A stretch of DNA of 64,000 bases from Candidatus Moraniibacteriota bacterium. GTDB lineage: Bacteria > Patescibacteriota > Minisyncoccia > Moranbacterales > GCA-2747515. Under the pieces are notes generated by a model that was not told where the DNA came from, searched no databases, and saw only the letters and a program-made list of their open reading frames with translations. A program made the position numbers and the translations under genes. Location of the stretch: the NCBI GenBank assembly GCA_046116545.1, contig CP175956.1:77219-141218 (forward strand), read 5' to 3'. Below, piece by piece: positions 911 through 62,640 of this stretch (position 1 is the first letter of the stretch; the number at the start of each line of letters is the position of its first letter).

Positions 911-2638
911 TTACCTCACAAAACAACCATTTGGAATTTGTATATCCATGTTATTTATCTTTTTTGGACTCATTCTATACAACATCAATGTTCCAAAATT
1001 CTTTTTATCAACAACATTATGAATTTCCAACATTTCATCAGCAATATGCACCTTTGATTTTGTTCGCACTAGTACGTAATATCCTTTTCCATCAACTTGC
1101 TCCGTTTCAAAACTACTTCTTTTTATATAACATTGTGCATTATCAATTCCATTTTCAATATTTGTCAAAAAATATAATGTACGTGCATAACGGTTATCAC
1201 CAACAATTAGAAATTTAGACTCATTCTGCTCTTCACTAATATACCGAGATACTTCACGCAATTGTCCAAGTGTAATATAATCTGCACGTTTCATTATTAA
1301 ATCACGCCATTGTAGAGACGCGATTAATCGCGTCTCTACGTTATTTAAAATTGTAAAATATTGCCATGAACTCACGAGGTTGAAAATAAGCAAACAACTT
1401 ACAATGACAATGCTTACGCCAATCCCAACTCTACCAAATTTCTTTTGTAATACTTGTAATACTGTTCCAAACATAATTAAAAATACCGGAACAATCAAAA
1501 GATAAAATCGTGGAGAAATTTGATATGCCATCAATACCAAAAATATATTTACAATACCAAGCCAGAGTACGATAAGTAACTGCCTTTGATACAAATTAAG
1601 TTCAATCTGACTCTCTTTCCGTTTTTTATAACTCACAATAAATGGATATAAGAATACAATACTAATAAGTATTAAGCTACTCATTGCAACTACATGTACT
1701 GGCAATCGTTCCTTACAATCCTTATCACACAAGAAATATCCTGTTGTCGTTTTTTTTGTGCGAATATTATCTCCACCAGACTGATTTCCGGTTAATACTA
1801 CAAAATTATATGTACTTGTTTCTTGTGCACTTCTAAATATTTTTTCAGCAATGTTATGTTTATCGTCTTTGTTGCCTTTTTCAAAGATGACATTTACCAA
1901 TGACTTTGCATTTGCACCACTAGTTTGTATTTCACTAAATATCACAGGAGCATATAACAAGCAAAAAAGTCCTACTGACATAAGCATAACTCTCCAGTCT
2001 ACTTTCATCTTTGTAAATAGGATGTAAGAAATTACTATCAATGGCAGTGTCAAAAATGCTATAAAATGCAATTGCATCGCTACTGCACTAGCTCCCACCA
2101 TCACTAAGAACCAACTTTTTGAAAAAACCTTATTATCCCATGCTCGTAAAAGTCCGTACATCGACAAAGTCATCCAAAAAGGTAACGCATTAGGATTCCA
2201 AGCAAAACGACCGTATGTAATCAAAAAAAGCGATGTCGCAGCCACAGCAACTAACATTACACTTATTGAACGAGAAAAATACAATCGAGCAAATAAATAA
2301 AATAACGGTAAAAATAAAATAGAAAATAATAAATCTGGCAATGCAACAATGCTCGGACCGACTCCAAAAAAGATAGCTGGAATTGCTTGAAAATAATAAA
2401 AAATTGGACCTAAATATAATTCACTTCCCCGTGCATATGGACCAAGTAATGGAATACTACCCCCATTCAACATATCATATACAACAAATACATCTCTAGC
2501 CTGATCTAACTCAAAGTGTAATAAATCTGCATAGTTATAAACACGCAAAAAAATACCCAGTAGAATAAAAATACCAAGCAAAATATATATCACTTTATTA
2601 GATTTGATTTCTGCTAATAAGTCTTTTATTTTCAACAT
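911..2638 (-). CDS. GT-C fold polytopic membrane glycosyltransferase (ArnT/PMT-like, GT39/GT83-type)
   Basis: 575 aa with more than 10 predicted TM helices. An early extracytoplasmic loop carries an acidic motif (ELDQARDVFVVYD) resembling the DE motif of polyprenol-P-sugar-dependent GT-C enzymes. It sits next to three further GT-C paralogs. Confidence 0.55.
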   Translation of the reverse strand: MLKIKDLLAEIKSNKVIYILLGIFILLGIFLRVYNYADLLHFELDQARDVFVVYDMLNGGSIPLLGPYARGSELYLGPIFYYFQAIPAIFFGVGPSIVALPDLLFSILFLPLFYLFARLYFSRSISVMLVAVAATSLFLITYGRFAWNPNALPFWMTLSMYGLLRAWDNKVFSKSWFLVMVGASAVAMQLHFIAFLTLPLIVISYILFTKMKVDWRVMLMSVGLFCLLYAPVIFSEIQTSGANAKSLVNVIFEKGNKDDKHNIAEKIFRSAQETSTYNFVVLTGNQSGGDNIRTKKTTTGYFLCDKDCKERLPVHVVAMSSLILISIVFLYPFIVSYKKRKESQIELNLYQRQLLIVLWLGIVNIFLVLMAYQISPRFYLLIVPVFLIMFGTVLQVLQKKFGRVGIGVSIVIVSCLLIFNLVSSWQYFTILNNVETRLIASLQWRDLIMKRADYITLGQLREVSRYISEEQNESKFLIVGDNRYARTLYFLTNIENGIDNAQCYIKRSSFETEQVDGKGYYVLVRTKSKVHIADEMLEIHNVVDKKNFGTLMLYRMSPKKINNMDIQIPNGCFVR

Positions 2639-12141: not shown

Positions 12142-12229
12142 GAGATTGCTTCGTCGTACCTCCTCGCAAAGACGATATCTAGTCATTGCGAACAGAACCA
12201 AAATCATCTGTGACCTGTGAAGCAATCTC
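12142..12229. repeat. Palindromic element family A (unit II then unit I, opposite order to 9274)
   Basis: gagattgcttcgtcgtacctcctcgcaaagac ... gtcattgcgaacagaacc...gtgaagcaatctc. Confidence 0.8.
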
Positions 12230-12236: not shown

Positions 12237-12539
12237 TTATCCATTTTCTATCATTTTACCATATAAATCAACCCACTCAATATTACTATTTTCAATCAAT
12301 GCAATTTTATTTTTACGCGAACCACTTTTTATTTGTTTTTCTCTAGAAATTGCAGACTCAATTGATGGACATACTTCATAATGTACTAACTTATGCAAAT
12401 TATATCTTTGAGTAAATCCCCTTACAATATTATTTTTGTGTTCCCAAATTCGTTTTTGCAAATTAGTAGTAACTCCAACGTACAAAGTACCATCTTTTTT
12501 ATTCGTTAAAATATACACGCACGAAATTTTTTCATTCAT
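12237..12539 (-). CDS. GIY-YIG domain nuclease family protein (UPF0213-like)
   Basis: Motifs VYILTNKKDGTLYVGVTTNLQKRIWEHK and RPW-like. It is flanked on both sides by family-A repeats. Confidence 0.75.
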   Translation of the reverse strand: MNEKISCVYILTNKKDGTLYVGVTTNLQKRIWEHKNNIVRGFTQRYNLHKLVHYEVCPSIESAISREKQIKSGSRKNKIALIENSNIEWVDLYGKMIENG

Positions 12540-12575
12540 AATTTTGTCATATAATAAATCTCATGTCTTCATCTC

Positions 12576-12680
12576 GTCTTTGCGAGCAACTGTGACTTTT
12601 ATTATGTCTAGCGAAGCAATCTCCACCAGGTTTATTAATATACTCACTAAGATTGCTTCGTCGTACCTCCTCGCAATGAC
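12576..12680. repeat. Palindromic element family A. Its unit II overlaps the 3' end and supplies the stop codon of the GT4 gene.
   Basis: gtctttgcgagcaactgtgac...gcgaagcaatctc / ctaagattgcttcgtcgtacctcctcgcaatgac. On the minus strand, unit II reads ...V S L R G G T T K Q S stop. Confidence 0.8.
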
Positions 12681-24765: not shown

Positions 24766-24820
24766 TTATTTATAGTCACTAAAAATATATCTATATCCAA
24801 TAATACTACAATCAACTCCA

Positions 24821-24926
24821 CGAAGCAATCTCAAAAAGAACACTCCTCTGTCTTTGCGTCAAGGTGAATTGAGCTCTGCTCAAGAGAGGGACCACCTGGG
24901 TGGAGGAGGTACGACGAAGCAATCTC
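24821..24926. repeat. Palindromic element family A, long variant (intergenic)
   Basis: cgaagcaatctc ... gtctttgcgtcaaggtgaattgagctctgctcaagagagggaccacctgggtggaggaggtacgacgaagcaatctc. ORF 24854..25048 is a read-through of this element. Confidence 0.8.
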
Positions 24927-24933
24927 CACAAGA

Positions 24934-32764: not shown

Positions 32765-33454
32765 TTACATCTTTATATTTTTTCTCTGTGCGCGTAATTC
32801 CAAAGCCTTCCTATAAATTTGCATATCTTTCGCATGAAATCTTTCCACATTCTTTCTAAACTCATCCGAAATATCCTCACTATTCTTTCTATTAACACGC
32901 TCATGATAAACTGACATTTCAACCTTTAAAAAAAATTTTGAAAAATATTTCACATCTTCTTCATAAAATTCAGTAATACCAATAAAATCAAAGTCTTCTA
33001 GCGGAAATTTCCATAAATATTTTGAATAAACATTTCTCAACTCATTGCTAAAGCAGAAATTCTCTAATGACCAATTTTCTTCAATTACTTTCTTGTGTAA
33101 ATTAAAGGATTCATTATAATTATAAGACTTCTGCCAATAATTATAATGTGAAATTAATCGATCTACTGGATTACGCATCCATGTTACAAATTTAACATCT
33201 TCTCCTTTTCTGAATTTAATGGGAAGATATTTAAATGGAAGAAAATGACCGTGAATACATTGAATATTCTGATATTTATTTGAAAAAATATAATTATTAA
33301 AATATGCAATATTTGTCATTCCATGTCTTATTAGTGAAGAGTGCTGCAATGGTGCATCTTTATGATCAATTAATAACTGATTACCAAAATAATCATGTAA
33401 AGATTTTCTAAAGCTACTTCCCGCAGTTTTTGGTAAGTGTAGTGATATTAACAT
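32765..33454 (-). CDS. PAPS-dependent sulfotransferase (Sulfotransfer_2 / HS2ST-like)
   Basis: N-terminal 5'-phosphosulfate-binding-like motif LHLPKTAGSSF (compare PKTASTSF in 2-O-sulfotransferases). An internal IHGHF is present. Immediately adjacent to cysQ and cysC. Confidence 0.6.
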   Translation of the reverse strand: MLISLHLPKTAGSSFRKSLHDYFGNQLLIDHKDAPLQHSSLIRHGMTNIAYFNNYIFSNKYQNIQCIHGHFLPFKYLPIKFRKGEDVKFVTWMRNPVDRLISHYNYWQKSYNYNESFNLHKKVIEENWSLENFCFSNELRNVYSKYLWKFPLEDFDFIGITEFYEEDVKYFSKFFLKVEMSVYHERVNRKNSEDISDEFRKNVERFHAKDMQIYRKALELRAQRKNIKM

Positions 33455-33482
33455 TATTTTTAAAAATTAAAAAATATAATTA

Positions 33483-34283
33483 TTATTTATTTATAAATAC
33501 TCTATTACTTACAATATACCCATTTAATAACATCGTTTCTTTGTTATTATATTTAATTGTACTATTCTGCATATCACAAACATATCCACCCGCTTCCTGT
33601 ATAATGATATCACTTGCGCAAATATCCCACAAGCCACTTTTATTACTTGAATTAATATACAATTCTGCATCACCTACTGCAACTTTACATATTTTAATAC
33701 CAGCTGAACCCATAGGAGCCTGTTTCATATTATTTTTCTCTGCAATTTCTTGTTCATAATCTCCCAAGTGATTTCGACTTACTAGAATTCTGCCATTTTT
33801 CATTGGTTTTTTGCTAGTTGAAATTCTTTTAGGAAGATTCCTGCCTTCGTAGGAATGACAATAGAAAAATGCGCCTTTATTTTTCTCGGCATAATATAAT
33901 TCATTTAATACTGGTGCATACACTATACCAAAAATTGACTCACCCTCCTTATTTACTAATCCAATCATTATTGAAAATTCTCCTGTTTTTTGTATGAAAT
34001 CAGATGTCCCATCTAGTGGATCAATAATCCACACAAAGTTTGCTTTTTTTCTATTTTCAAAATCATCCTCAATCTCTTCACTTAATATTGGATAATTATA
34101 TCTTGATAATTTATCCATCAAAAAATTATTCACTGCAATATCTGCCTCCGTTACAGGTGTTTTGTTTTGTTTTTGTTCTATGGTGTATTCTTTATCATAA
34201 AACTGCATGGCGATGTTACCTGCTTCAATTGCTATTTTTATTATTTCTTGGATATTTATATTGTAATTTTGCATGATTATCAT
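33483..34283 (-). CDS. cysQ: Inositol monophosphatase family protein, probably 3'(2'),5'-bisphosphate nucleotidase (CysQ-like PAP phosphatase)
   Basis: Motifs EEIEDDF...WIIDPLDGTSDF, IVYAPVLNELYYA and GSAGIKICKVAVGDAELY. Genomic context is cysC and a sulfotransferase. Confidence 0.7.
   Translation of the reverse strand: MIIMQNYNINIQEIIKIAIEAGNIAMQFYDKEYTIEQKQNKTPVTEADIAVNNFLMDKLSRYNYPILSEEIEDDFENRKKANFVWIIDPLDGTSDFIQKTGEFSIMIGLVNKEGESIFGIVYAPVLNELYYAEKNKGAFFYCHSYEGRNLPKRISTSKKPMKNGRILVSRNHLGDYEQEIAEKNNMKQAPMGSAGIKICKVAVGDAELYINSSNKSGLWDICASDIIIQEAGGYVCDMQNSTIKYNNKETMLLNGYIVSNRVFINK
33836..33860. repeat. Family-D hairpin (gattcctgccttcgtaggaatgaca) embedded in-frame in the cysQ-like CDS
   Basis: Differs by 1 nt from the copy at 45483..45508 downstream of another gene. 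Encodes HSYEGRN within the CDS. Confidence 0.6.
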
Positions 34284-34294
34284 TACTCAAACTA

Positions 34295-34320
34295 GATTCC
34301 CGCCTACGCGGGAATGACAC
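34295..34320. repeat. Family-D hairpin (gattcccgcctacgcgggaatgaca) in the 3' intergenic spacer
   Basis: Short palindrome ending in ggaatgaca. Terminator-like position downstream of cysC. Confidence 0.55.
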
Positions 34321-34328
34321 TAAAAAAA

Positions 34329-34853
34329 TTATAATTGTTTGTCTATGTAACTTACTATTTTTTGAACGCTTTCTTCTACTGTTTCCTTTTCCGTATTCAC
34401 TATTATTTCTGAATTAACTGGTTTTTCAAATGGGTCTTGTACTCCTGTGAAATCCATTATTTCTCCTTTTTCTGCTTTAGCATACATACCCTTCACATCC
34501 CTCCTTTTACATTCTTCTACACTACACTCTACATACACCTCTATAAAATTTTCACATAAACCTCTCGTAAAATTACGCATTTTTTGATATGGTGATACAA
34601 ATGCTGATACCACATTTACACCATTATCAGATAACATCTGTGCAATATATGATAATCGTTCTATATTTTTATTTCTATCCTCTTTGCTGAAATCTAAATC
34701 ATTACTAATTGTTTCACGTACAATATCACCATCTAATCTTTGAATTGATAAATACTTCTCTTGAAAATATTTTTCAATTTCTTTTGATAGTGTTGTTTTT
34801 CCGCTACAAGGTAATCCAGTAAACCAAATTACTAATCCTTTGTCTTTTTTCAT
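34329..34853 (-). CDS. cysC: Adenylylsulfate (APS) kinase
   Basis: GLVIWFTGLPCSGKTTLSKEI (P-loop), LDGDIVRETISNDLDFSKEDRNKNIERL, and VNVVSAFVSPY. Canonical APS kinase motifs. Confidence 0.9.
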   Translation of the reverse strand: MKKDKGLVIWFTGLPCSGKTTLSKEIEKYFQEKYLSIQRLDGDIVRETISNDLDFSKEDRNKNIERLSYIAQMLSDNGVNVVSAFVSPYQKMRNFTRGLCENFIEVYVECSVEECKRRDVKGMYAKAEKGEIMDFTGVQDPFEKPVNSEIIVNTEKETVEESVQKIVSYIDKQL

Positions 34854-34870
34854 ATTTATAAATATTTTCT

Positions 34871-34897
34871 AGATTCTCGCCTTCCACGAGAATTACA
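34871..34897. repeat. Family-D-like hairpin downstream of wzt
   Basis: agattctcgccttccacgagaattaca. Confidence 0.45.
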
Positions 34898-34902
34898 GCT
34901 GA

Positions 34903-36318
34903 TTATTTTTTGCTCCATTCGTGTTCAATGCGCATTATTCCTACTCCAGACCCTTTTTGTTTTTTAATTTTGATAATATGATTATTTAGTTCTTTTGTTG
35001 AATTAGAATCCACAATATCATTTTGTCCACTTTTATTTTCAAATAAAACAGCTTTTATATATATTTCCCCCGTGTTAAACATCGTGTTTTTAAAATAAAT
35101 TATAAATACATTTCTATCTTTTTGCCAACTGCAATTAAAATTATCTACATCTGTATTATTACCACACAAAAATACATTTGTTTCATTGTCAAAAATTTGC
35201 ACTGCTTGCACAAGATTATGCTTAATTTTTGAAACTTGCACTTCAATCTCTACAAAAAAATCATCACCCCATGTAATTTCAGTTAATTTATTTCTATCTA
35301 TATCAAAAACCTGTATATCTGTAATTATATTTTCATTTTTCACTTGTCTTTTCATACCACCTCTTAGTGATTTCTCATGTTCCTGCTCTTCTTTTTCAAT
35401 CCGTTCCTTTTTTTCTAATTCTTCACGTTGGTCTTCAGACATATTTTTAATAATATATTCATCACATACATCATTCACATCACCAGAACCAAGTAATTCA
35501 CCCTTATGTAATAATAAAGCTCTATCACAATATTCTCGCACTGTTGCCATACTGTGGGTTACTAATATTACAGTTTTTCCCCTCTCTTTATATCCTCTGA
35601 AAATATCAAGACACTTCTCTTGAAATCTACTATCCCCCACAGCCAATACCTCATCCATAATAAGTATTTCACGATCTGCATGAATTGACACACTGAAAGC
35701 GAGACGAGCCTTCATGCCACTTGAATAATTTTTTAATTGTTCGTCTATAAATTTTTCTAATTCTGCAAATGCGACTATTTCATCAAACTTTTCATCAATT
35801 TGTTTTTTTGTTAAACCTAGTACTGTCGCATTGAGATATATATTGTCTCGTCCTGATAATTCTGGATTAAAACCTATTCCTAGCTCAAGGAATGGTGATA
35901 TCATACCATTTACCTCAATTGATCCAGATGTTGGTTGATAAACACCTGCTAAAATCTTTAACAATGTAGACTTACCTGCCCCATTATGTCCTATAATTCC
36001 CAAAAATTCTCCTTTTTTTACTTCTACTGAAATATCTTTGAGAGCGTAGAATTCTTCATATGTATTTTTTTTCAAAGAATTCACAAAAGCACTTTTCATT
36101 GAATCAATTTTTTTGTGAGGAATTTTAAAGATTTTTGAGACGTTTTTTACTTTTACTGCTATTTCTTTATCTGGCTGAGATTGCTTCGTCGTACCTTCTC
36201 CACCCAGGTGGTCCCTCTCTTGAACAGAGTTCAATTCACCTTGACGCAAAGATGCATCTTTTTTTACTTTGATGCTTTTATCTTTTTTATTTGATTGTTG
36301 GTTATTTTTTTTATTCAT
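34903..36318 (-). CDS. wzt: ABC transporter ATP-binding protein of the Wzt/TagH/KpsT polysaccharide-export type, with a C-terminal substrate-binding (Wzt_C-like) domain. It carries an in-frame 84-nt family-A insertion near the N-terminus.
   Basis: Walker A GHNGAGKST, signature YSSGMKARLAF and Walker B ILIMDEVLAVGD. An extra ~180-aa beta-rich C-terminal domain is present. The N-terminal leader contains SLRQGELNSVQERDHLGGEGTTKQSQP, encoded by repeat A. Confidence 0.8.
   Translation of the reverse strand: MNKKNNQQSNKKDKSIKVKKDASLRQGELNSVQERDHLGGEGTTKQSQPDKEIAVKVKNVSKIFKIPHKKIDSMKSAFVNSLKKNTYEEFYALKDISVEVKKGEFLGIIGHNGAGKSTLLKILAGVYQPTSGSIEVNGMISPFLELGIGFNPELSGRDNIYLNATVLGLTKKQIDEKFDEIVAFAELEKFIDEQLKNYSSGMKARLAFSVSIHADREILIMDEVLAVGDSRFQEKCLDIFRGYKERGKTVILVTHSMATVREYCDRALLLHKGELLGSGDVNDVCDEYIIKNMSEDQREELEKKERIEKEEQEHEKSLRGGMKRQVKNENIITDIQVFDIDRNKLTEITWGDDFFVEIEVQVSKIKHNLVQAVQIFDNETNVFLCGNNTDVDNFNCSWQKDRNVFIIYFKNTMFNTGEIYIKAVLFENKSGQNDIVDSNSTKELNNHIIKIKKQKGSGVGIMRIEHEWSKK
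36177..36251. repeat. Palindromic element family A, long unit II, inserted in-frame in wzt
   Basis: gagattgcttcgtcgtaccttctccacccaggtggtccctctcttgaacagagttcaattcaccttgacgcaaagat. This is the reverse complement of the intergenic copy at 24850..24926. Confidence 0.85.
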
Positions 36319-36328
36319 TGCTTTATAA

Positions 36329-37156
36329 TTATATCTTTTCTGCTACATTTGTGATTAATTTCCTGTATGCCCAAATACTAAATATGAAAAATGCAATAAT
36401 TACACTTATAAACATTGCTATTTGACTCAAATCTGGATAATGATTGTTAAACATTGATTCTTTTGTGAAATGGATGATAAATGCCACTGGATTCAGAAGA
36501 ATAAACTTATGTGTCCACACTGGTAACATTGTCAATGGATATAGAATTGGCAATATATAAAACATAACTCTCAATGCAACTTGCCAGATCATTGCCACAT
36601 CACGAAGATACAAAAGTAATGGCGCTGTAATAAGTGAAAATGACAATATTAGTATATATAACGCTACTGCAAAAGTAATTGAAAGTATGATAGATGCAAT
36701 AGACGGCATAAATTGAAATCCTATGAAAAATGCAATGATGACAATTATATTCATCAGAAATACCATCCCTGTATTTATAGTTGATGCCAGAATAATTGAC
36801 CACCTTGGTACATAAATTTTTGTTACTAATTGTGCTTTACTCTTAAGCGCATTCATACCCGCATTAGTTCCTTCTGAAAAAAATGTAAAAAGCATCAATG
36901 CAACTAGTAATTGCAAAGAATAATTTTCTATTCCACCACCACGAGCACCTGTACCAAACACACCGGAAAAAACAGCTGCCAAAACCAAAAACAAAAGAAG
37001 TGGCTGTAATACCGCCCATACATAACCCAAAACAGATCCTTGATAACGAAGTTTAAAATCCGTTTTAGCAAGCATCCAGATTAGCTCTTTATAATTTTCG
37101 TGTTCTTGTAGTGATTCTTTAATTATTTTCATAAATAAATAGTACAATAAAAACAC
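36329..37156 (-). CDS. wzm: ABC-2 type transporter permease (Wzm/TagG-like)
   Basis: 275 aa with 6 TM helices. Sits immediately upstream of the Wzt ATPase, with overlapping or adjacent arrangement. Confidence 0.75.
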   Translation of the reverse strand: MFLLYYLFMKIIKESLQEHENYKELIWMLAKTDFKLRYQGSVLGYVWAVLQPLLLFLVLAAVFSGVFGTGARGGGIENYSLQLLVALMLFTFFSEGTNAGMNALKSKAQLVTKIYVPRWSIILASTINTGMVFLMNIIVIIAFFIGFQFMPSIASIILSITFAVALYILILSFSLITAPLLLYLRDVAMIWQVALRVMFYILPILYPLTMLPVWTHKFILLNPVAFIIHFTKESMFNNHYPDLSQIAMFISVIIAFFIFSIWAYRKLITNVAEKI

Positions 37157-37226
37157 CTATCCCAAGGCTTTTTCATTATATCACATGGTAGCATTGTTGC
37201 AATAATACAACAATGCCTGCCAAAAT

Positions 37227-37640
37227 TTACTTTGGCACATAGTATGATACTCCTTCATACCTCCATTCTGTTGTAGGATATGTTGCAATAATATGATCCT
37301 TTTCACTTTCTGAAACTGTGAAAAAATGTGCCTTATTACGTGATGAATAAAATCTATATACTGGTTTATTACCTGCTGCAACTGTTGGCACATAGTATGA
37401 TATACCTTCATATCTCCATTCTGTTGTAGGATATGTTGCAATAATATGATCCTTTTCACTTTCTGAAACTGTGAAAAAATGTGCCTTATTACGTGATGAA
37501 TAAAATCTATATACTGGTTTATTACCTGATGCAGATGTTGGCACATAGTATGATATTCCTTCATATCTCCATTCTGTTGTAGGATATGTTGCAATTATAT
37601 GATTCTTTTCACTTTCTGAAACTGTGAAAAAATGGGCCTT
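37227..37640 (-). repeat. Three near-identical 126-bp tandem coding repeats
   Basis: Visible DNA periodicity. The alternate-frame ORF 37181..37594 is an artefact. Confidence 0.85.
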
Positions 37641-40600
37641 ATTACGTGCTGAGTAAAATCTATATACAGCTTGTTTTTCTTGTCTATCTGCATTCTCTTC
37701 TTCTATACCGTCTACATCAAAACTTATTGGAAAATCTGTATCATTTGTATTTCCTGATTCTTCTGTACACCTTATATAATAATTGTACGTATTTCCGTCT
37801 GATAATCCTGTTATATCATGTCCATGATCCTCGCCTCCTGTAACATTTGTCATTGCTGACATATCTGCATAAACTGTATTTAGAGCATCAGAATATCTAC
37901 ATGTTGCATTTTCCCATGTATTTAAATATATTTCTACACTAGTTGTTCCACTTGGTTGTGTCCCATCTGGGCTACCATCAAATCTATCTGGCATTGTATT
38001 ATCTACTTCAAAAGAAGTAACACTTAATACATTACTGGTATTTGCAGAACCATCTGTCACACTAATTGTACAATTACTATGAGTTCCCTCCGATAAAAAA
38101 TTAAAAGTAATTGTGTTATTTCCAACAGTCGCTGTACTTGTAACACTAGAGCAATCACCTCCATAAGTAATAGTTCCTACTTCATCTGTGTTGAATGTAT
38201 AGTCTGGTGTATTATTATTTGTTGGAGTTGATACTGGTGTCACTTCCGTTACTATAGGCGCTACCACATCGCTAATTGATTCATCTTTTATTTTTGATAC
38301 AAAAATATCATAACATCCATATGATGTTAAAGTATTTCCAGTCATATTAATTGTATCTTTAAATCTTCCAACTAAATATCCTTTCCCATAGTCATTAAAA
38401 GCCATTGCTTCACCTGTGTCAGTGCTTGTATTGCCCCAAGACTCTAATGAACTAGCATCTCCAGTTACAACATCTAATATTCCATAAAATATATCATAAC
38501 CACCAGCAGAACTCACGGGCAATGCGTCTGCATATAATGTTCCATAAAATCCACCTGTTATATATATGTTATTATCATTTACTTTAATGTCTGTACTATT
38601 CGTTGATGACGCGTTAGTCCAATGCTTCATCCAATCTACATCTCCATCAGTATTCAATCTTGCAATATATATATTATCATTACTGATTCCTGCTAAGGCT
38701 TGTCCAAATACATCTGCATTATTTTGAAACGTGCCTGATGTATACACATTTCCACTATCATCTATATCAATTGTATATCCATAATCACGAGCATACTCTG
38801 CACTACCACCTCCCTGTTTGGACCATACACTATCTCCATTTACATCTAATTTTGCCAAAAATATATCATATCCTCCAGTTCCACCACCTTCCGTAAATAC
38901 ATTCCCAAAAATATTTGCAACATCACTAAAATAACCGGTAACAAATACATTTCCATTTGTGTCTGTGACAATATCATTGCCTTTATCTAGGCTAGAGCCA
39001 CCCGATCTTTTTGCCCAAATATTATTTCCATCACTATCTATCTTTGCTACAAAAATATCATCACTACCAGCTGATACTAGAGATACTCCTAAAATATCAG
39101 TAGTCCCCGCAAATGAACCAGTTATGTACAAATCATCATTATCATCTATATATATCGATTTAGGATATTCTGTACTTGTACCACCAAAATTATATGCCCA
39201 AATCACATTACCATCATTATCTAATTTTGAAAGATAACCATCATAACTTCCGTTTGATGTTAAATCTATTCCAAAAATATTTGCATCATTACTAAAATAG
39301 CCTGTTAGATATAAATTACCCATGCTATCAATTTCAATAGATGGACTAGTTACATAACCAGTACCGTAAGCATGTTTTGTCCAAACAGAATTCCCATCTA
39401 AATCCAACTTTGTAATGAACGTATCCCACGGTCCATCTGCCACTAAATTTGTACCAAATATATCAGCATCTGTGTTAATAATTCCAACAACATAAGCATT
39501 TCCAGAATCATCAATAACAACATCATAAGCACCTTCACTTCCGCCTGAGTACGTATATGAGTTACACAATCCTGCATAATCCCCACCAGCATGTTTTGTC
39601 CACTCTGTAGTTCCAATATTAATATTTTTCATCATCAATTTTGTACCATTTGAACCGTCTGGCATATTATCATTTGATTCAAATGCTATTTTACTTCTGT
39701 CGGGTGAGATTGATGGTGCTCCATCATATCCTGCAAAATTTGTAAGTCTCTCCACAGTACCGCCTGCAACTGGAATTTTATAAATTTGTGCTAAATTTGT
39801 TTCAAAATCACTACTGTAGATTATATAATGACCATATTCTGAAAATACAGCATCTGTCTTGTCACCTGCACCACTTGTAACTTTTGATTTGTCTGTTCCA
39901 TCTGTATTCATAGTCCATATATCCCACATACCTCCATCTAATTTTTGATATAAAATTTTATCTCCTTTTGGTGACCAATTTGGTTGTCTACAATCATCTC
40001 CCGTATCTGTTAGATTTATGTAACTACTACTTCCATCAATTTTATACTTTGTAATAATTCCATCAGTTGGCACATCTACATCATGAGTTTCAAAAACAAC
40101 CCACTGACCATCGTGACTAAATGACGGTTCATATGACATTTTAGCACTCCCGCCTATTCTATCTGTAATTTTAACTTCTGCTCCTGTTGTAGCACTATCA
40201 CCTATACGAAATACTTCATCATGTGGATCTTTAGATGAAGAAAATGTTATTTCATTTCCAACCCATGAACTCCCAGGTAAATTCACATTATCATTTCCAT
40301 CACTCATGAGTTCTGTCACATTTTCTGATGCTATATCATAAATGTATAAATCAGCCGGACCTTCATTATATCCATTTCTCCACCGTGTAAAAAGAATTTT
40401 ACTTCCATCGGGAGAAAAAGCAGGGTTTTGCAAACTACCTGTTAAATTTATATTTAATACTGTCTCCCCATCATTTCTGACTATATAATCCTCGCATCCA
40501 AATCTGTATGCATCTAAATCAAGATTTTTCTTAAGCCAAGAATATCCACTAGAGTTTGCCTGTGAACAAAATTTATCTGTATCTACTCTGTACTCAACTC

Positions 40601-41255
40601 CAAAAACTGGCTTATCTGCATTTATAAAAGTTTGATATCCGTCACATTCATTATATTGATAGCATTGTTCATTTAATGCCCAATCAAAACTTCCAACCAA
40701 GTCATTGATTTGATCTACATCGTTTTTAAGTCCTATTGATAAATCCCGACTGTGCGCTTCTGTTGCTAACCAATTATTATACGTGAGTTGATCGCCTGCT
40801 GTAAGTGGAAATCCTGTTGTATTTGTATACCCATCTATATTATCTGGTTCTACTCCATCACAATTTTTTGAAACAGCCAAATCCAATCTTGCCTGCATAA
40901 TTGGTTGTAGTGATGCATCTCTAATATCTAACCATTTTTCACCAGCCCAACCATCCAAATCATCACCTTTCACAGATTCTGCAAAATCACCCGCATCACT
41001 ACGCCAATCTTCCCAGCTCCCAGCAGAAAAATAACAAATAACTATTCTACCATCTGCATGTAATTCATCTATCTTACTTTGTGGAGTATCAAACAAATCA
41101 ACATCATACATATCAACATCATATGAAGTATCCACATCTCCAGAATTCAATTGCCACTGCCAAGTTAAATCTTGCGCAGCAGTAGGTTGCCACCAAGCAT
41201 CCGTAAAGCTAACTGGTATCAATAATAGTGCTATGAATAATATTATTTTTTTCAT
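37227..41255 (-). CDS. Giant secreted multi-domain protein. Domains: signal peptide, GH114 (endo-alpha-1,4-polygalactosaminidase-like) glycoside hydrolase, TolB/PD40-type beta-propeller, SBBP-type beta-propeller repeats, and three C-terminal 42-aa repeats.
   Basis: GH114 hallmarks WQWQL, VDLFD, ICYFSAGSWEDWRSD, EKWLDIRD and CDGVEPDNIDGY. PD40-like repeats SPDGSKILFT, SHDGQWVVFE, SPKGDKILYQ and SPDRSKIAFES. SBBP-like GNAYVVG, GNLYLTGYF, DLYITGSF and GNVFVTGYF. C-terminus has three copies of PVYRFYSSRNKAHFFTVSESEKDHIIATYPTTEWRYEGISYYVP. Confidence 0.65.
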   Translation of the reverse strand: MKKIILFIALLLIPVSFTDAWWQPTAAQDLTWQWQLNSGDVDTSYDVDMYDVDLFDTPQSKIDELHADGRIVICYFSAGSWEDWRSDAGDFAESVKGDDLDGWAGEKWLDIRDASLQPIMQARLDLAVSKNCDGVEPDNIDGYTNTTGFPLTAGDQLTYNNWLATEAHSRDLSIGLKNDVDQINDLVGSFDWALNEQCYQYNECDGYQTFINADKPVFGVEYRVDTDKFCSQANSSGYSWLKKNLDLDAYRFGCEDYIVRNDGETVLNINLTGSLQNPAFSPDGSKILFTRWRNGYNEGPADLYIYDIASENVTELMSDGNDNVNLPGSSWVGNEITFSSSKDPHDEVFRIGDSATTGAEVKITDRIGGSAKMSYEPSFSHDGQWVVFETHDVDVPTDGIITKYKIDGSSSYINLTDTGDDCRQPNWSPKGDKILYQKLDGGMWDIWTMNTDGTDKSKVTSGAGDKTDAVFSEYGHYIIYSSDFETNLAQIYKIPVAGGTVERLTNFAGYDGAPSISPDRSKIAFESNDNMPDGSNGTKLMMKNINIGTTEWTKHAGGDYAGLCNSYTYSGGSEGAYDVVIDDSGNAYVVGIINTDADIFGTNLVADGPWDTFITKLDLDGNSVWTKHAYGTGYVTSPSIEIDSMGNLYLTGYFSNDANIFGIDLTSNGSYDGYLSKLDNDGNVIWAYNFGGTSTEYPKSIYIDDNDDLYITGSFAGTTDILGVSLVSAGSDDIFVAKIDSDGNNIWAKRSGGSSLDKGNDIVTDTNGNVFVTGYFSDVANIFGNVFTEGGGTGGYDIFLAKLDVNGDSVWSKQGGGSAEYARDYGYTIDIDDSGNVYTSGTFQNNADVFGQALAGISNDNIYIARLNTDGDVDWMKHWTNASSTNSTDIKVNDNNIYITGGFYGTLYADALPVSSAGGYDIFYGILDVVTGDASSLESWGNTSTDTGEAMAFNDYGKGYLVGRFKDTINMTGNTLTSYGCYDIFVSKIKDESISDVVAPIVTEVTPVSTPTNNNTPDYTFNTDEVGTITYGGDCSSVTSTATVGNNTITFNFLSEGTHSNCTISVTDGSANTSNVLSVTSFEVDNTMPDRFDGSPDGTQPSGTTSVEIYLNTWENATCRYSDALNTVYADMSAMTNVTGGEDHGHDITGLSDGNTYNYYIRCTEESGNTNDTDFPISFDVDGIEEENADRQEKQAVYRFYSARNKAHFFTVSESEKNHIIATYPTTEWRYEGISYYVPTSASGNKPVYRFYSSRNKAHFFTVSESEKDHIIATYPTTEWRYEGISYYVPTVAAGNKPVYRFYSSRNKAHFFTVSESEKDHIIATYPTTEWRYEGVSYYVPK

Positions 41256-41370
41256 ATATTTTTATATTCCTGAACACTCAGTATACCATAATTATAAAAC
41301 TAATTTTGATTGATTTTTCGCTCTCTACTGTATGATTTTTGAAATTTCTTTGTTATTAAATCAATGATCT

Positions 41371-41512
41371 ACCTTCTCCCCTTTTTAAAAGGGAAGATGT
41401 CCGATAGGACAGAGAGGGGTTTGTTATAGTAGCTTTTTAATCTTTGTATTATTTAGTTCTTATTTTTACCAAAACCACCCCTCAGTCCCCTCCTTAAAAA
41501 GAAGGGGAGGCT
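41371..41512. repeat. Hairpin element family B (part 2 then part 1)
   Basis: ccttctcccctttttaaaagggaagatgtccgataggacagagaggggtt ... accacccctcagtcccctccttaaaaagaaggggagg. Confidence 0.7.
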
Positions 41513-41920
41513 TTATTTATTTTTCTTTTCTTTGATTGTCAGCCAAATGAACATTATAAGACTAATTATCACAAACATTATACTTGCAAATGTTGATACT
41601 TGCTCTTTTGTATCTAATATCTCTATAAAACTCCCTGAACTTTCAGATGAAATCATAATCCAAATTACTGATATAAAAAAATACCAAAAGGTAAACTTTA
41701 ACCATTTTTTGAATATTTTGTCTGAGATGAAAAATGTAAAAATTGCGGTTATTAATAATCCTAATGACATCCATGCTATCGGATCCACATACCAATTATA
41801 TTCAAAAATTATTTCAAACAAATTATTTTTAATATCTAAATATGCTGCAATATAACTGTACGTAAAAAAAGTTATGGCAATTACTAATACTTCGACTCTT
41901 TTAATATATTTTTTTTTCAT
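41513..41920 (-). CDS. Small integral membrane protein
   Basis: 135 aa with 4 predicted TM helices. Confidence 0.4.
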   Translation of the reverse strand: MKKKYIKRVEVLVIAITFFTYSYIAAYLDIKNNLFEIIFEYNWYVDPIAWMSLGLLITAIFTFFISDKIFKKWLKFTFWYFFISVIWIMISSESSGSFIEILDTKEQVSTFASIMFVIISLIMFIWLTIKEKKNK

Positions 41921-41934
41921 AATTTAATTTAATT

Positions 41935-44900
41935 TTATTTAATTAACTTTTTAAAAATAAACACACTAACAATCATCAAAAATAATAGGAATATTCCAAT
42001 CAAAATATCTTTGATTGATTTTTTGTTTTCGGAATTATTATCATCTTTTATTTCCTTATTTTCATTTTCTACTGTATTGTTTTGAGATTTCTCTACTTCG
42101 GTCGAAATAACGTCCTTTTCATTTGCCACATCATCCCCCAGAGATTGCTTCGTCGTACCTCCTCGCAAAGACTCATTATTAAAAATATTTTCCGTAATAT
42201 TATTTTTTTCGTCATCGTCATCATCATTGTCTTTGTCATCATCTTTATTTTCATTGCTTTCACTACTACTAAATACTGTACTTCCATCATTTCCATCCTC
42301 TAATGTAGTAGTTCCATTGATTTGTGGTACAACTTCATAATCATTACTTCCATCACCATCATAATCAGCTGTGAGTCTTGTAATATTTTCCAATCCAGTT
42401 CTTGGAATTGCAAAACTTACTTTTGTATTTTCTGATGTTGGTAGATTTTCCATTGTTAGATATGAGGTTACTTCTTCTCCTGCCTCCGTGATACTCACTT
42501 CCTCTAATTTGATAGTATATGAACCTGTATTATAACCATCCAACTCCACGATTATATCACTACCACCCCATCCTACAAATTTATGTTCTCCAAATACATC
42601 GTAATAACTATTTGGCATATTTTCTTCTATAATTTGATTTCCATTTTCATCTATTATGGGTCCTGTGTGATTTCCTTGATTGTCGTATAAATGAATGTCT
42701 AGTGGTGAATATAATGCCATTCTAAGTCTTTTTGCACTGTGTTTACTATGCTTTATTGCGTCAGTGTCATCTGGTCTATTTTTCGTGATATAATCAGACA
42801 ATTCTTCTTGAATTTCATGTTTACTGATGATATTTGAGATTAAATTTCGTAACGACTTAACTTCTAAAATATCTTTGTGCTTTCTATCTTTCGCAAAACC
42901 CTTATTTTCTTCATACATATCCAAAAAATATTTCTCAACATTCTCAGATTCTGACATCATAAGTGAACTTGGTGTTACTACAACATTATCTCCATCTACT
43001 GTATATTTTGGTATATATGATTCTACTGTTACATCTTTGCATTTCGTTCTTTTTATTCCTTCTTTTGTTACTTTATCTTCACATTCTACTTTTGTGATAC
43101 TTTCATAATCTATTTCACTTATTGTATCAAGCCCCCAGCCTCCTATTTGTATTAGATTTACATTTTCTGGTGGTGTCCAGTTATTTAACTCTTCGTGCAA
43201 TTCTTTATTTTCATCAAATAATTTCTCATTTAATATATTTGCTCTTTTTGTATCATTCTTATTTGGTTTGTGTCTATTATCTTTTTTTGCCAATAGAAAA
43301 TCCTTGAATTCATCATAACTATTTATTGTATCTCCATATGCTTTTTTGTATTTCTTGTATTCTGATTTTTCTGATTTAAAATTTATTATTGGTTTATCTA
43401 TTCTTCTGAAATATTCTTCTGTTGGTAAAAGTCCATAAGCAGATGGCATATTTCGTACTACCTCCCTAGCTTCTGCGTCACTGATAACTGAATTTAATTC
43501 TATTTTTTCATCAAATCCATACAACATTGTCAAGATTGCCTTTGATGTTCCCATTTGTGGTGAACTTACCATGACAATATTATCAACTTTATCTGTCATG
43601 TTCAATATTTCAAGTTGTTGCATTATGGATTTTGCTAGTAATCCACCATTTGAATGAGCTACAATTGTAACTTTTCCACTAACTGATGAGTCAGATAATC
43701 TCATCACTTCACTTATTGGATTTTTTATAGAACTCATTTCATAATTTGTTCCATTTATTGCAATATCGTCTACACTTTTTCTCCAATCATATGCATATAA
43801 AGAATAATCATTTATTATTCTATCATCTTTTAAGTTTTTTAAATCTCCAAAAAATCTTTTGTAAATATTTGGAGCTAATACACTAGGAAGTCCTGCTTCA
43901 TAAATTGGCTCTTCAGTGAAAATATCATTTATACTATTTCCATCTTCATCTAATAATATATTTTTGTAATCATCTCCACCTGGAGTAGGTGGCCATACTT
44001 GATTTGTACCGTCATATAATCTGCTAGCTTTTGCACCTGGTAAAAACAATACATTTGATGCAAAATCCGATGATCCTCTCCAATCGTATTCTAATACATT
44101 TGTATCTCCGCTTACTTTTTCACCTGCTGCTAATATTGCATAATCGTCTCCATTTTCATTAACAAAGTTACCTGTTGGACCGTTTGTATGTCCGTACCAA
44201 TTATTTTCTAAAATAACCTTGCTACTGTCATGAGTCATTGCATCATTTTCACATGTTTCACAACATGCATCATAAATAGCATCATTTTGATTATTGTTAT
44301 ATTCATCATCACAGTTATCATAACAAATATCTTCTCCTTCAAAGTCATAAACTACAACATTTGAAATTACTGCTATATTTTGTCCACTTTCTTCAAAATT
44401 AGAATTTTTAATATGTACATAACTATTTTCATTGTAATCTTCTTCAAGTTCCATCTCTACTTGAATATCTGCATACTTGCTATTTTTGAAAATAACATTT
44501 TCCATATCTAATTGTCCTGACATATGTAGTATTGCTGGTGCTTTTCGAATAGCTTCTTCATCTGCATAAACATTATTTGTTATGATGTCATGTATTGCTA
44601 TCCCTGGACAATGTAATTCATTGTAATCAAAATATTCTCCCAATCCATCAAATTCTACAAATTTAAAAAATGATGGTTCAAATATATAACCATCAATTTC
44701 ATACGTATCAAATTTAAATGCTGAAACTCCACCTAAATCACACTGCTCATCAAACTCATTTCCTTCATTAAATGGAGTTTTTGTAAAAACTATTTTATTA
44801 TCAATATCGCCAACTGCAACAATACGTCCAGCATCTTGTACTACGATATGCTTTATTGATATATGTGATCCAGCTTCAATAGTTACTGTTGCACCATCAA

Positions 44901-45090: not shown

Positions 45091-45183
45091 GTCTTTATTT
45101 TAGCATGCTTTATTTGTTGTGGTCTAGTTTTTTTGATATATAAACCATTTCTAACTAACGAGCACTACTCATTGTAGTGGCGT

Positions 45184-45241
45184 GGCCTTGTGCCCGCCAT
45201 GTAGATCTAATGCGAGGACAGCCACAAGGGCATGTCCCTAC
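45184..45241. repeat. Family C, degenerate copy
   Basis: ggccttgtgcccg...gacagccacaagggcatgtccctac. Confidence 0.5.
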
Positions 45242-45273
45242 AAAAAATAGATGTCACTCTTAAATGGCGAATC

Positions 45274-45321
45274 GAGATTGCTTCACATATCACAAATAAT
45301 GTCACTTCAGTTCGCAAAGAC
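45274..45321. repeat. Palindromic element family A, unit I in reverse orientation
   Basis: gagattgcttcacatatcacaaataatgtcacttcagttcgcaaagac. Confidence 0.75.
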
Positions 45322-45380
45322 GCTACACAAATGATACTGATTTTTCATTTAAAATTTGTTTTATACTTACGTTATATACA

Positions 45381-45420: not shown

Positions 45421-45482
45421 TATTAAACTTACACAAAATAGATATTACATAATATTATAGGATTTTCTCAAACTTTTCGAAA

Positions 45483-45508
45483 GATTCCTGCCTTCGCAGG
45501 AATGACAT
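45483..45508. repeat. Family-D hairpin immediately downstream of the GT gene (terminator-like)
   Basis: gattcctgccttcgcaggaatgaca. Confidence 0.6.
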
Positions 45509-45514
45509 TGATTT

Positions 45515-46714
45515 TTATTTTAACTTACTTTTTAAATACTCATAATATTCCGCATTCTTTGTATTTTGTGTTGTATATTCTTTTATTGTTTTTTGATATG
45601 CTTTTTGTCCCATTTTGATTCTTAGATCTTTATTTTCTATTAACTGTGCTAGTTTGTCTGTCCATTCTTCTGAGTTTTTTGCTGTGAATCCATCCACTCC
45701 ATCTTCAATAGCATCTTGATATGTTTGATTGTCTATTGCTATTGTTGGAACTTTTACTATTCCTGCCTCAAAAAACTTTAATTCTGACTTTGCTTCACAA
45801 AATGGATTATTATATTCTAATGGCGCAAGATTAATATCACATTGTGCTATATTTGCAAAATGTTTACTACGCTTCACGTAGGGTAATTGTTTAATTCTAT
45901 CTCCAAACTTTTTCACTAAATCATTTTCAACATCCAATGGACCGACTAATAATAACTCTACATTTTTATACTTTTCCATTATTGTCATCAATGGTTCTGT
46001 GATTGTTGCAAAATCTTTGTTGTGGCTTATTGTTCCACTGAAGTAGCCTAGTTTTACTATATCCTCTCGAGATTGCTTCGTCGTCGTACCTCCTCCTCGC
46101 AATGACAATAAAGCTTTTTTTGCACCATCAATATCTTTTTTTGATAATTTATTTTGTACTATGAAAACTTCTTTATTTTCTTGTCTTAATTTGTTTGCAA
46201 GAAATTTTGTGGTTGTGGTTGCGACTTTCACATATTCATCTTTTAATATTTCTCCACCCACTCCATTTTCATAAAGCTTCTTTTCCAGACTATTCATTTT
46301 TTTATAATAATCCATATGTTCTAAATATTTTGGATCATATACCAAATCATCTGTTTCAAAAATGATTATCTTATTTTGTTTTTTTATTTCTTCTACTAGC
46401 TTTGCTATTTTTTTTGTATTTAAAGTTCTATGAAAAATAAATATTGAAAATTTATTTACATAACTAACTAGTCTTGGATTATCTTGTACTGTAACTGAGC
46501 ATTTGAATCCATTAAATTCTAATTCTTCGGCTATATGAGTTGTCCTGTGTAACGCACTATCACCTACTCCACCTGAAATAAATAAAATGTCTCCACTGCC
46601 AACCTTGCGAAATAATGCAAAGAACGCACTTAAAACACGTTTTGAACCATTGATGAGTCCATCTCGTTTTATTACTTGCCACGACTTTCCTATTTTAATT
46701 AAGAATGTATTCAT
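45515..46714 (-). CDS. GT-B fold glycosyltransferase (GT1/GT4-like) with an in-frame family-A insertion in the inter-domain linker
   Basis: C-terminal Rossmann domain with an E-x7-E-like segment (CEAKSELKFFEAGIVKVPTIA). Linker contains LSLRGGGTTTKQSRED. Confidence 0.55.
   Translation of the reverse strand: MNTFLIKIGKSWQVIKRDGLINGSKRVLSAFFALFRKVGSGDILFISGGVGDSALHRTTHIAEELEFNGFKCSVTVQDNPRLVSYVNKFSIFIFHRTLNTKKIAKLVEEIKKQNKIIIFETDDLVYDPKYLEHMDYYKKMNSLEKKLYENGVGGEILKDEYVKVATTTTKFLANKLRQENKEVFIVQNKLSKKDIDGAKKALLSLRGGGTTTKQSREDIVKLGYFSGTISHNKDFATITEPLMTIMEKYKNVELLLVGPLDVENDLVKKFGDRIKQLPYVKRSKHFANIAQCDINLAPLEYNNPFCEAKSELKFFEAGIVKVPTIAIDNQTYQDAIEDGVDGFTAKNSEEWTDKLAQLIENKDLRIKMGQKAYQKTIKEYTTQNTKNAEYYEYLKSKLK
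46068..46106. repeat. Palindromic element family A, unit II, with internal triplet duplications, inserted in-frame
   Basis: gagattgcttcgtcgtcgtacctcctcctcgcaatgac. The tcg and cct triplets are duplicated relative to the canonical unit. Confidence 0.85.
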
Positions 46715-49235: not shown

Positions 49236-49284
49236 TTGTCATTCCGGAAGTGAAAAATTAGAATTTTAACTTCCGGAATGACAA
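49236..49284. repeat. Family-D-like palindrome (ttgtcattccggaagtg ... cacttccggaatgacaa)
   Basis: Perfect 17-bp inverted arms around a 15-bp loop, read from the sequence. Confidence 0.7.
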
Positions 49285-62372: not shown

Positions 62373-62400
62373 TTGTCATTCCTGCGTAGGCAGGAATCTT
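62373..62400. repeat. Family-D hairpin (gtcattcctgcgtaggcaggaatc) in the grpE-dnaK spacer
   Basis: Read from the sequence. A related tggaatgacaa lies at 62490..62510. Confidence 0.5.
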
Positions 62401-62640
62401 TCTGTAATTTCAAAGATATTTTATAATCTGTTCAAAAGATTCCGGACAATGATATTTTTTGCCAATCACTTTGTTCTTGGAAAAATATACATTTCTGGAA
62501 TGACAATTTATATATGTTACTAACTTGATTGATTAAACTAGTTATAAATTGAATATTTATCATTCTCATGAACATAGAATCCTCGCGATTAAATTCTATA
62601 TTCATTTTGAATGACAATATTCTCAATGTTTGATTATTAA

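Follow-up and report, generated by a model that had tools for sequence, protein, structure and literature searches.

Ogata et al. reportedly described, in 2000 and 2002, the Rickettsia palindromic elements (RPEs), palindromic repeats that lie in frame within genes, and Elhai et al. are said to have reported in 2008 that the very small dispersed repeats of cyanobacteria form tiny, nesting hairpins and can be in frame in coding sequence. The GC clusters of yeast mitochondria are likewise tiny hairpin elements that nest and can occur in frame in coding sequence. The present analysis concerns a short hairpin repeat, termed family D, one copy of which lies inside a cysQ-like gene in a 64,000-nucleotide stretch (hereafter the window) of the genome of a Candidatus Moraniibacteriota bacterium, a member of the Candidate Phyla Radiation (CPR). 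The sequence families of the cyanobacterial and mitochondrial repeats are unrelated to family D, and they are not known to have an associated nuclease. Closer counterparts are found among repeats of the repetitive extragenic palindromic (REP) type. CGTC-tagged REPs carry a conserved CGTC at one end of the stem-loop, the stem measuring 8-9 bp, the loop 4-5 nt and the tail 3 bp (Table 1, PMC3733652). CGTC-1 elements have been equated with dRS3 of Neisseria, and the CGTC repeats present in R. conorii with RPE-4 and RPE-6; intragenic CGTC and GTAG REPs from several phyla and in-frame RPEs have already been documented in the same report, which also cites the Rickettsia work of Ogata (PMC3733652). 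According to the text of a more recent report, NTS and SRM repeats are single-stranded DNA (ssDNA) sites of Ssn proteins, single-domain GIY-YIG nucleases of ~94 aa whose genes are typically repeat-flanked; the catalytic residues of SsnA are Y6, Y17 and E64, and the SRM pattern permits A, C or T as the first base of the tag (PMC11893778, Nat Commun 2025).

The repeats of the window resemble dRS3/NTS, as presented in the text of PMC11893778, in a nearly identical sequence, ATTCCC-N8-GGGAAT with GTC upstream and C downstream, in being oriented, dispersed and hairpin-forming, and in the presence of a gene for a GIY-YIG protein of roughly 100 aa with tagged repeats on both sides. They differ in that most copies read ATTCCT...AGGAAT behind a TGTC tag and fall outside the strict NTS and SRM patterns, and in that the repeats on either side of the ssn-like gene come from a sister subfamily with hardly any ability to fold into a hairpin; the host also differs, CPR being unmentioned in the main text of PMC11893778, and no in-frame coding copies are described in the text of that report. 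With the CGTC REPs of Di Nocera, De Gregorio and Rocco (2013), they share the tag, stem, loop and tail, a location mostly 3' of open reading frames (ORFs) with some intragenic copies, and the co-occurrence of GTAG-tagged REPs in the same genome, whereas the tag of the window copies usually starts with T, CPR lie outside the five phyla listed in PMC3733652, and different subfamilies appear to have settled time and again at one orthologous cysQ site, displacing the old loop. The likeness to RPEs lies in the in-frame position of palindromes at permissive surface positions of apparently functional genes in a small AT-rich genome; classic RPE-1 measures 100-150 bp, however, against 25-28 nt (9 codons) for the window element, and most insertions of RPEs are ancient and were inherited from common ancestors, whereas close CPR relatives differ in both presence and subfamily. 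GTAG REPs and REPINs, which are linked to RAYT transposases, likewise consist of short palindromes dispersed outside genes, bear a conserved tag of four nucleotides and follow a single-strand hairpin logic, and GTAG palindromes occur in the window too, one of them in frame, but the tag of family D is GTC, not GTAG, and no RAYT was detected among the Pfam-scanned ORFs of the window.

Coding palindromes and the sequence family are already known; what is new is the CPR host and the recurrent, replacement-type turnover at one site. A literature search, with most subscription journals outside its coverage, returned no paper on repeats of this kind from CPR genomes. The cysQ copy is probably a dispersed (T/C)GTC-tagged REP repeat lodged in a permissive turn of the protein, where it would be tolerated as a passenger without serving any regulatory purpose. 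The coordinates of the features are collected in Table 1.

An in-frame repeat copy in cysQ

Assignment of ORF 33483-34283 to CysQ rests on matches to Pfam Inositol_P (2.8e-49) and to TIGR01331 CysQ (3.4e-62; 210.3 bits, under the 228.8 cut-off) and is supported by the genes for adenosine 5'-phosphosulfate (APS) kinase, ATP sulfurylase and sulfotransferase nearby; the true start is likely the second or third ATG (MQNYN...). A first-pass annotation of the window had placed a copy of the repeat inside this IMPase-family coding sequence, and the 25-mer GATTCCTGCCTTCGTAGGAATGACA is indeed present within the ORF, on the + strand at 33836-33860. The sense codons of 33834-33860, TGT CAT TCC TAC GAA GGC AGG AAT CTT, encode CHSYEGRNL. 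When up to 3 mismatches were allowed (<=3), the 25-mer was found three times in the window, with 0.00 copies expected from 100 dinucleotide shuffles, the other two matches lying at 45483-45507 (1 mismatch) and at 62374-62398 on the minus strand (2 mismatches). The first of these had been reported as a copy differing by one base and lying downstream of a glycosyltransferase (GT) gene, both of which hold, with an end at 45508 that is one base too long. Its 25-nt core, which differs from the coding copy by 1 nt, is identical to the copy inside the cysQ gene of locus L001 (L and P numbers designate homologous loci and proteins, respectively).

The coding copy retains 7/8 stem pairs, one position being an A.C mismatch on the sense strand. 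As RNA, its sense strand folds at -5.6 kcal/mol (z -0.35), no different from what shuffled sequence gives, and as ssDNA at -2.7 kcal/mol (z -0.94), compared with -12 to -14 kcal/mol (z about -3) and -7.7 to -8.9 kcal/mol, respectively, for intergenic copies. The folding of the mRNA, proposed in the first-pass annotation as a check, thus does not predict a stable intragenic hairpin.

The AF2 model of the protein has a pLDDT of 92.7 overall and fits solved CysQ/IMPase structures, the best PDB match being 3b8b CysQ (TM 0.80). The block 141-150, which averages 64 and connects the modelled strands 137-142 and 152-153, includes CHSYEGRNL, which is predicted to form a low-confidence surface turn (a β-hairpin turn) in an otherwise confident model. 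As in RPE-type genes, the palindromic repeat lies in frame while the functional motifs of the protein are retained. The only public protein identical to the window CysQ is P0023 (NCBI, 63,952-bp contig), the identity extending through and beyond the element.

Table 1. Positions of the repeat copies and genes in the window.
Feature	Position	Strand	Remarks
CysQ-like 3'(2'),5'-bisphosphate nucleotidase ORF, IMPase fold, 266 aa	33483..34283	-	Pfam, TIGR01331 and structure model
In-frame family D copy in cysQ	33833..33860	-	sense strand TGTCATTCCTACGAAGGCAGGAATCTTC; 33834-33860 (27 nt) encode C142-L150
Intergenic family D copy, cysC/cysQ gap	34292..34319	-	TGTCATTCCCGCGTAGGCGGGAATCTAG; only strict SRM-pattern match in the window
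Intergenic variant, gap between Wzt-like ABC ATPase gene and cysC	34871..34896	-	TGTAATTCTCGTGGAAGGCGAGAATCT; stem differs, paired via compensatory changes
Intergenic family D copy near GT1 ORF 45515-46714	45480..45507	-	ends 8 nt downstream of the stop codon
Long symmetric variant, DUF4012/ATP-sulfurylase gap	49238..49282	.	TGTCATTCCGGAAGT...ACTTCCGGAATGACA; 15-bp stem, -29.3 kcal/mol, z -8.3
Intergenic family D copy, grpE/dnaK gap, opposite orientation	62374..62401	+	
67-nt variant with family D ends and long interior	62438..62504	-	TGTCATTCC...CCGGAATCT
Long variant	15722-15812		found by looser pattern and hairpin scan
Ssn-like gene, 100-aa single-domain GIY-YIG nuclease	12237..12539	-	Pfam GIY-YIG 1.3e-17 over residues 7-79
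Two GTC-tagged repeats, ATTGCGAGGAG...GAAGCAAT family, downstream of ssn-like gene	12144..12227		12144-12174 (-), 12182-12227 (+)
Two GTC-tagged repeats, ATTGCGAGGAG...GAAGCAAT family, upstream of ssn-like gene	12573..12680		about 12573-12624 (+), 12651-12680 (-)
In-frame ATTGCG-family copy in GT1 ORF 45515-46714	46071..46106	-	encodes SLRGGGTTTKQS
In-frame ATTGCG-family copy in 1051-aa ORF 41935-45090 (acidic linker)	42141..42172	-	encodes SLRGGTTKQS
GTAG-tagged perfect palindrome GTAGAGACGCGATTAATCGCGTCTCTAC, in frame in GT39/PMT_2 ORF 911-2638	1312..1339	.	encodes VETRLIASLQ

Elements at the cysQ loop in other genomes

The site was compared across 39 aligned CysQ homologues, with a neighbour-joining tree computed after masking of the loop, and at the DNA level in ten homologous loci. 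The catalytic motifs EE, DPLDGT and WD are invariant across the alignment, and the stretch between GA[FY]x and [KQ][IL]xVS is hypervariable. Homologues without an element, outgroups included, have a 6-residue turn of the x-K-D/N-G-x-K type at this place, as illustrated by the Thermotoga IMPase GAFFNGERIRVS in comparison with GAFFY-CHSYEGRNL-PKRISTS of the window. The coding copy sits in frame and replaces this ancestral 6-residue turn, with the catalytic motifs intact. These results bear out the first-pass annotation in that the coding copy is situated between conserved IMPase motifs, at a loop that is short in distant relatives; the length of this stretch differs among homologues. Alignment to homologues had been proposed there as a way to see whether the peptide is an insertion. 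The same peptide in distant taxa had been named there as the observation that would speak against the idea. The peptides CHSCEGRNL, CHSREGGNL and CHSRENGNP were found in homologues of related CPR lineages only and were lacking in non-CPR homologues; in substance, similar peptides are confined to lineages related to that of the window. Such CHSxExxNL-like peptides track the DNA hairpin, including compensatory stem changes, and do not behave as a protein motif.

A hairpin-derived peptide occupies exactly the cysQ loop in at least four separate CPR lineages, each of which has an element-free sister in the loop-masked tree. These lineages are the large clade of the window, P0025 with P0034, P0020 (sister P0024, 82% identical) and P0043 (sister P0050). 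In the pairs P0020/P0024 and P0043/P0050, nine element-encoded residues replace six ancestral residues. The element also differs between loci: family D occupies the loop in L001, L127 and L128 and has decayed in L126 (21/27), whereas L130 carries a ATCCTGAA...TTCAGGAT hairpin and L131, L132 and L133 carry ATTGCGAGGA...GCAAT (ATTGCG-type) elements; nested or multiple elements are present in L128 and L083. In 8/9 element-bearing loci, an element opens with TGTCAT and closes with ATCT or AATTT (in L128, the elements are nested); the tag of L132 reads CGTCAT, and the 5' end of the L133 element is degenerate. In L128 (2001-3014), a long ATCCCGGA hairpin comes first and then a family D copy, itself interrupted by a further insert within its own loop, and the CysQ loop of this locus is expanded to about 50 residues.

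The element is more similar between genomes than the surrounding gene. Between the window and L001, it is identical at 26/27 positions, compared with 76% for the flanks and 64% for third codon positions; between the window and L127, the respective values are 24/27, with a compensatory change of T:A to C:G, 65% and 47%. Between L127 and L130, the identity of cysQ is 84%, with stretches of 95-100%, yet the two genes contain different hairpins. Aligned along their length (L127:2001-2789 and L130:2001-2792), they form a mosaic with 95-100% identity at alignment positions 120-360, 58-73% around the element and lower values again at the 3' end, a distribution which suggests recombination breakpoints near the repeat.

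Three short metagenome contigs (L084, L085 and L086) contain the 5' half of close cysQ homologues and have their 3' ends at or inside the element, so assemblers appear to break there, as expected for a high-copy repeat. The metagenome scan yielded one full close relative in addition to these three truncated contigs. In L128 and L131, the annotated N-termini of P0009 and P0002 run through upstream intergenic repeats (CHSGLDSES and SLRGASSDV, respectively) and are spurious.

Classification and distribution of family D

All copies of family D consist of a GTC tag before the stem, an 8-bp stem ATTCCNGC/GCNGGAAT, a 4-nt loop (GAAG or GTAG), and then C followed by a tail (CTT or CTA), in agreement with the stem, loop and tail dimensions of CGTC REPs. 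The first base of the tag is T in the family D copies of the window and C at L086:1319, at L133:1940 and at window position 12174. This combination of tag, 8-bp stem, 4-nt loop and C plus tail places the repeat with the CGTC-tagged REP, dRS3 and NTS class, and on these sequence features family D appears to be a dispersed (T/C)GTC-tagged REP-type hairpin repeat, of the class of dRS3/NTS, the SRMs and the short Rickettsia RPEs. When compared with the 28-nt Neisseria NTS consensus CGTCATTCCCGCGMAVGCGGGAATCYRG, the copy at 34292-34319 agrees at 26/28 positions; NTS are defined by <=1 mismatch, and the best window copy has 2 and the coding copy 6. The strict SRM pattern, HGTCWY N(0-2) YYVSBRH N(0-5) WNVSBRG N(0-2) RNCYNB, was found once in the window (34292-34319) against 0.02 expected. 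The bases important for SsnA, that is, the upstream GTC and the C just past the palindrome, are kept in every family D copy.

Eight copies of family D or its variants were found in the 64 kb, seven of them intergenic, and four of these seven (34292-34319, 34871-34896, 45480-45507 and 49238-49282) begin 6 to 15 nt past the upstream stop codon. The related hairpins listed in the first-pass annotation were all recovered, at 34295-34319, 34871-34896, 49238-49282 and 62375-62399, by a looser pattern combined with a hairpin scan. Strict family D was present in 12 copies in 127 kb of CPR DNA and in none (0) in 673 kb of non-CPR control loci, the latter being mostly distant non-CPR CysQ genes among the matches listed in the genome-contig profile search, where one Moraniibacteriota locus also occurred. 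From sequence comparison, the repeat family appears to populate the genome, mostly just 3' of stop codons, together with a small Ssn-type GIY-YIG gene flanked by sister repeats.

The description of these hairpins as terminator-like did not stand. Intrinsic terminators were considered and rejected: the tails (CTTTCG, CTAGTT, CTTCCT) have no T-run, none following any copy, and no copy was recovered in a terminator scan of 33000-50000. An Rfam search of the whole window returned no family at threshold.

An Ssn-like gene and its flanking repeats

The ssn-like gene came to light in a list of the intergenic ORFs, after a hand-written regular expression for GIY-YIG had missed it. Its residues Y9, Y20 and E67 are spaced as the catalytic residues given for Neisseria SsnA in the text of PMC11893778. 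The exact protein is deposited at NCBI as 'GIY-YIG nuclease family protein [Candidatus Moraniibacteriota bacterium]', and homologues of 95-100 aa with 55-60% identity occur in Rickettsiales and other phyla. The best PDB sequence match is a UPF0213 protein (1.5e-05), and a sequence search for a solved Ssn protein structure found none. The repeats on both sides belong to a sister subfamily, (T/C)GTC[AT]TTGCGAGGAGGTACGACGAAGCAATC. The layout of 12144-12680 resembles the 'repeat-ssn-repeat' unit described for Neisseria in the text of PMC11893778. The ssn-like locus is matched at 100% identity by three metagenome contigs from JGI (L134-L136), each about 1 kb long, which cover the immediate surroundings of the locus only. 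In a Pfam scan of the 46 long ORFs (>=110 aa) and the ssn-like ORF, no Y1/RAYT or other transposase domain was detected.

Origin and persistence of the coding copy

If the cysQ copy is a tolerated passenger, its persistence would be favoured by the permissive surface loop, by an element that is open in all three forward frames and by a sense-strand hairpin weakened by the stem mutation, with selection filtering for permissive loops and benign frames. The comparisons between genomes suggest that copies are renewed or replaced repeatedly and not passively inherited. A resident copy may act as a landing pad that is replaced by, or nested into by, subfamilies sharing the TGTCAT...ATCT ends, and a resident element would favour the next event because these subfamilies share the same ends. 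Spread and turnover probably depend on single-stranded hairpin DNA and on an Ssn-type nuclease or host repair; an Ssn-type nuclease acting on single-stranded hairpin DNA would be the most likely agent or partner.

Several observations weigh against this account. The coding copy and the other ATTCCT variants depart from the strict SRM pattern at one position (T for V), the partner base compensating, so that SRM membership of the coding copy is not claimed. The gains at the cysQ loop look like replacements (about 27 nt in, about 18 nt out) and not clean insertions with target duplication, a pattern that is predicted by no known REP mechanism; it may stem from templated gap repair or from an insertion after which selection acted on the length of the loop. 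Mobility is deduced by comparison; no near-identical pair of empty and filled sites was recovered and no event was directly seen. Given that the element is more conserved than its flanks, selection on the element itself could also be conceived. The repeats flanking the ssn-like gene are of the ATTGCG subfamily ATTGCGAGGAG, not of family D, and that subfamily is a poor hairpin (5-bp outer stem, z about +0.5). P0023, in turn, stops at ...STSKNQ*, a frameshift 8 codons past the element that corresponds to a reading with one A fewer in the sense-strand A6 run at 33792-33797, so cysQ may not be functional in every strain. This frameshift could reflect a homopolymer error or phase variation, or it could mark a pseudogene. 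Exact-product look-ups with the window CysQ and with P0023 gave no match, probably owing to the choice of start codon or to a public version bearing the frameshift.

The conservation of the element is what would be expected if the coding copy were kept as a working ssDNA site for an Ssn-type nuclease, controlling recombination or DNA uptake in the glycan-sulfation cluster in the manner of the NTS clusters around variable Neisseria genes, the DNA site simply being translated. This conservation exceeds that of flanking synonymous sites, stem changes are compensated, the GTC tag and the C after the stem that matter for SsnA are kept, many copies lie in a dense cluster of glycosyltransferase, sulfation and ABC-export genes, and the identity of L127 and L130 drops to 58-73% around the element from 95-100% upstream, which recalls the raised diversity beside dRS3 presented in the text of PMC11893778. 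Recent copying explains the high similarity equally well, however, and a site under such maintenance sits poorly with the stem mismatch on the forward strand of the coding copy and its weak ssDNA fold, with the decayed copy of L126, and with the finding, given in the text of PMC11893778, that stem mutations reduced SsnA binding in Neisseria; such a role is considered improbable. A role of the hairpin as RNA in cysQ, where it would tune CysQ expression by attenuation or termination, through RNase action or transcript stability, or by making translation pause, is very improbable, since the sense-strand fold of the coding copy is no better than that of shuffled sequence and orthologs have unrelated, decayed or no hairpin at the site; the intergenic copies directly past stop codons do fold well, and REPs have been proposed as RNA elements (PMC3733652), but no copy is followed by a T-run or was called terminator-like, and Rfam gave no match in the window.

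The insert opens with Cys-His in many homologues, which might point to a protein-level feature of CHSYEGRNL selected in CysQ, such as a Cys-His metal or redox site, to which the resemblance to the repeat would be secondary. The Cys-His pair is nonetheless TGT CAT, the tag of the element, which is also present in non-coding copies, and the other residues vary with the hairpin subfamily (CHPELVSGS, CHCEDDQREGE, RHCEERLATWQSL, DAINRVCT); P0024 lacks the peptide despite its close relationship to P0020, and the loop has low model confidence. The protein-level explanation is largely refuted already and is given next to no weight. It is equally hard to credit that the embedded copy is an assembly artefact, produced by a chimeric join at a repeat. 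The ending of contigs L084-L086 at or inside the element would fit such a join, but the ORF is continuous and full-length with motifs on both sides, P0023 was deposited at NCBI with the same sequence through and past the element, and an element occurs at the same codon position in independent assemblies from two ENA samples (L001 and L002) and from JGI and NCBI (L126-L128).

Beyond the persistence of a tolerated copy, a more far-reaching proposal is that the Ssn-associated repeats of CPR form an active system that repeatedly rewrites protein loops by cut-and-patch (templated replacement), which is regarded as unlikely. Such events would target TGTCAT/ATCT ends that are already present or a single preferred site; subfamilies would be swapped, elements would nest and the old loop would be replaced. 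If true, this would mean that a nuclease drives the diversification of loops and linkers of surface-glycan enzymes, and it would provide a first mechanistic handle on the movement of transposase-less CGTC REPs.

The results extend the dRS3/NTS/CGTC-REP family, together with an Ssn-type nuclease, to the CPR and indicate that coding palindromes are not confined to Rickettsia. For annotation, such repeats account for odd CPR peptides (CHSxEGxNL, SLRGGTTKQS, VETRLIASLQ), for spurious N-terminal extensions and for contig breaks. The cysQ loop may be viewed as a natural experiment, with at least four independent acquisitions, swaps between genes that are 84% identical, nesting and loop replacement. 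The spread of CGTC REPs has been unsolved since 2013, and the cysQ site could make the question testable; of the present findings, the recurrent, replacement-type turnover at this one orthologous site most merits follow-up.

Other intragenic repeats and genomic context

Four further repeat copies lie inside ORFs of the window, which together with the cysQ copy makes five intragenic copies in 64 kb. The tagged coding copies are all in forward orientation on the sense strand. The copy at 46071..46106 forms the linker preceding the Pfam-matched glycosyltransferase domain (residues 224-384) of its GT1 protein, and the L126 ortholog of this protein has SLRGGTTKQS at the same place. In the L132 ortholog (168-1361), the linker before LGYFSG contains GAAGCAAT followed by three tandem AGGTACC-containing units, and looks like a scrambled remnant of the element. 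The copy at 42141..42172 is 100% identical over 32 nt to a repeat beside the ssn-like gene, and the copy at 12651-12680 provides the last 11 codons and the stop of GT1 ORF 12647-13831 (VSLRGGTTKQS*). These three ATTGCG-family coding copies of the window share a frame, SLRGG(G)TT(T)KQS, and a Ser/Gly/Thr-rich frame was seen in 4/4 coding copies of this family.

The GTAG-tagged palindrome at 1312-1339 has an identical intergenic copy at 4941-4968. In the GT39 homologues P0241 and P0242, ETHCNASLR, encoded by a sister palindrome, is found where other homologues have a plain linker, and this loop gain likewise resembles replacement. A GTAG-tagged palindrome is also present at 867-895, the GTAG- and GTC-tagged families coexisting in the window. 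The larger gaps (15306-15560, 16963-17238, 45091-45514, 9343-9486 and 24815-24952) are filled by clusters of ATTGCG-type repeats in both orientations, which translate as LLRRTSS and EIASHVTND and resemble BIME or NIME mosaics.

Most of the window is occupied by a cell-surface glycan cluster, which includes four GT39/PMT_2 genes, at least 10 GT2 or GT4 genes and genes for a UDP-glucose dehydrogenase, a Wzm/Wzt-type ABC exporter, a methyltransferase and a GH114 protein. A full sulfation set is also encoded, comprising ATP sulfurylase, APS kinase, CysQ and sulfotransferase-like ORFs. The glycan cluster is followed by a heat-shock block (hrcA-grpE-dnaK, ClpB). GC skew is negative across the window, and nearly all genes beyond 22 kb lie on the minus strand.

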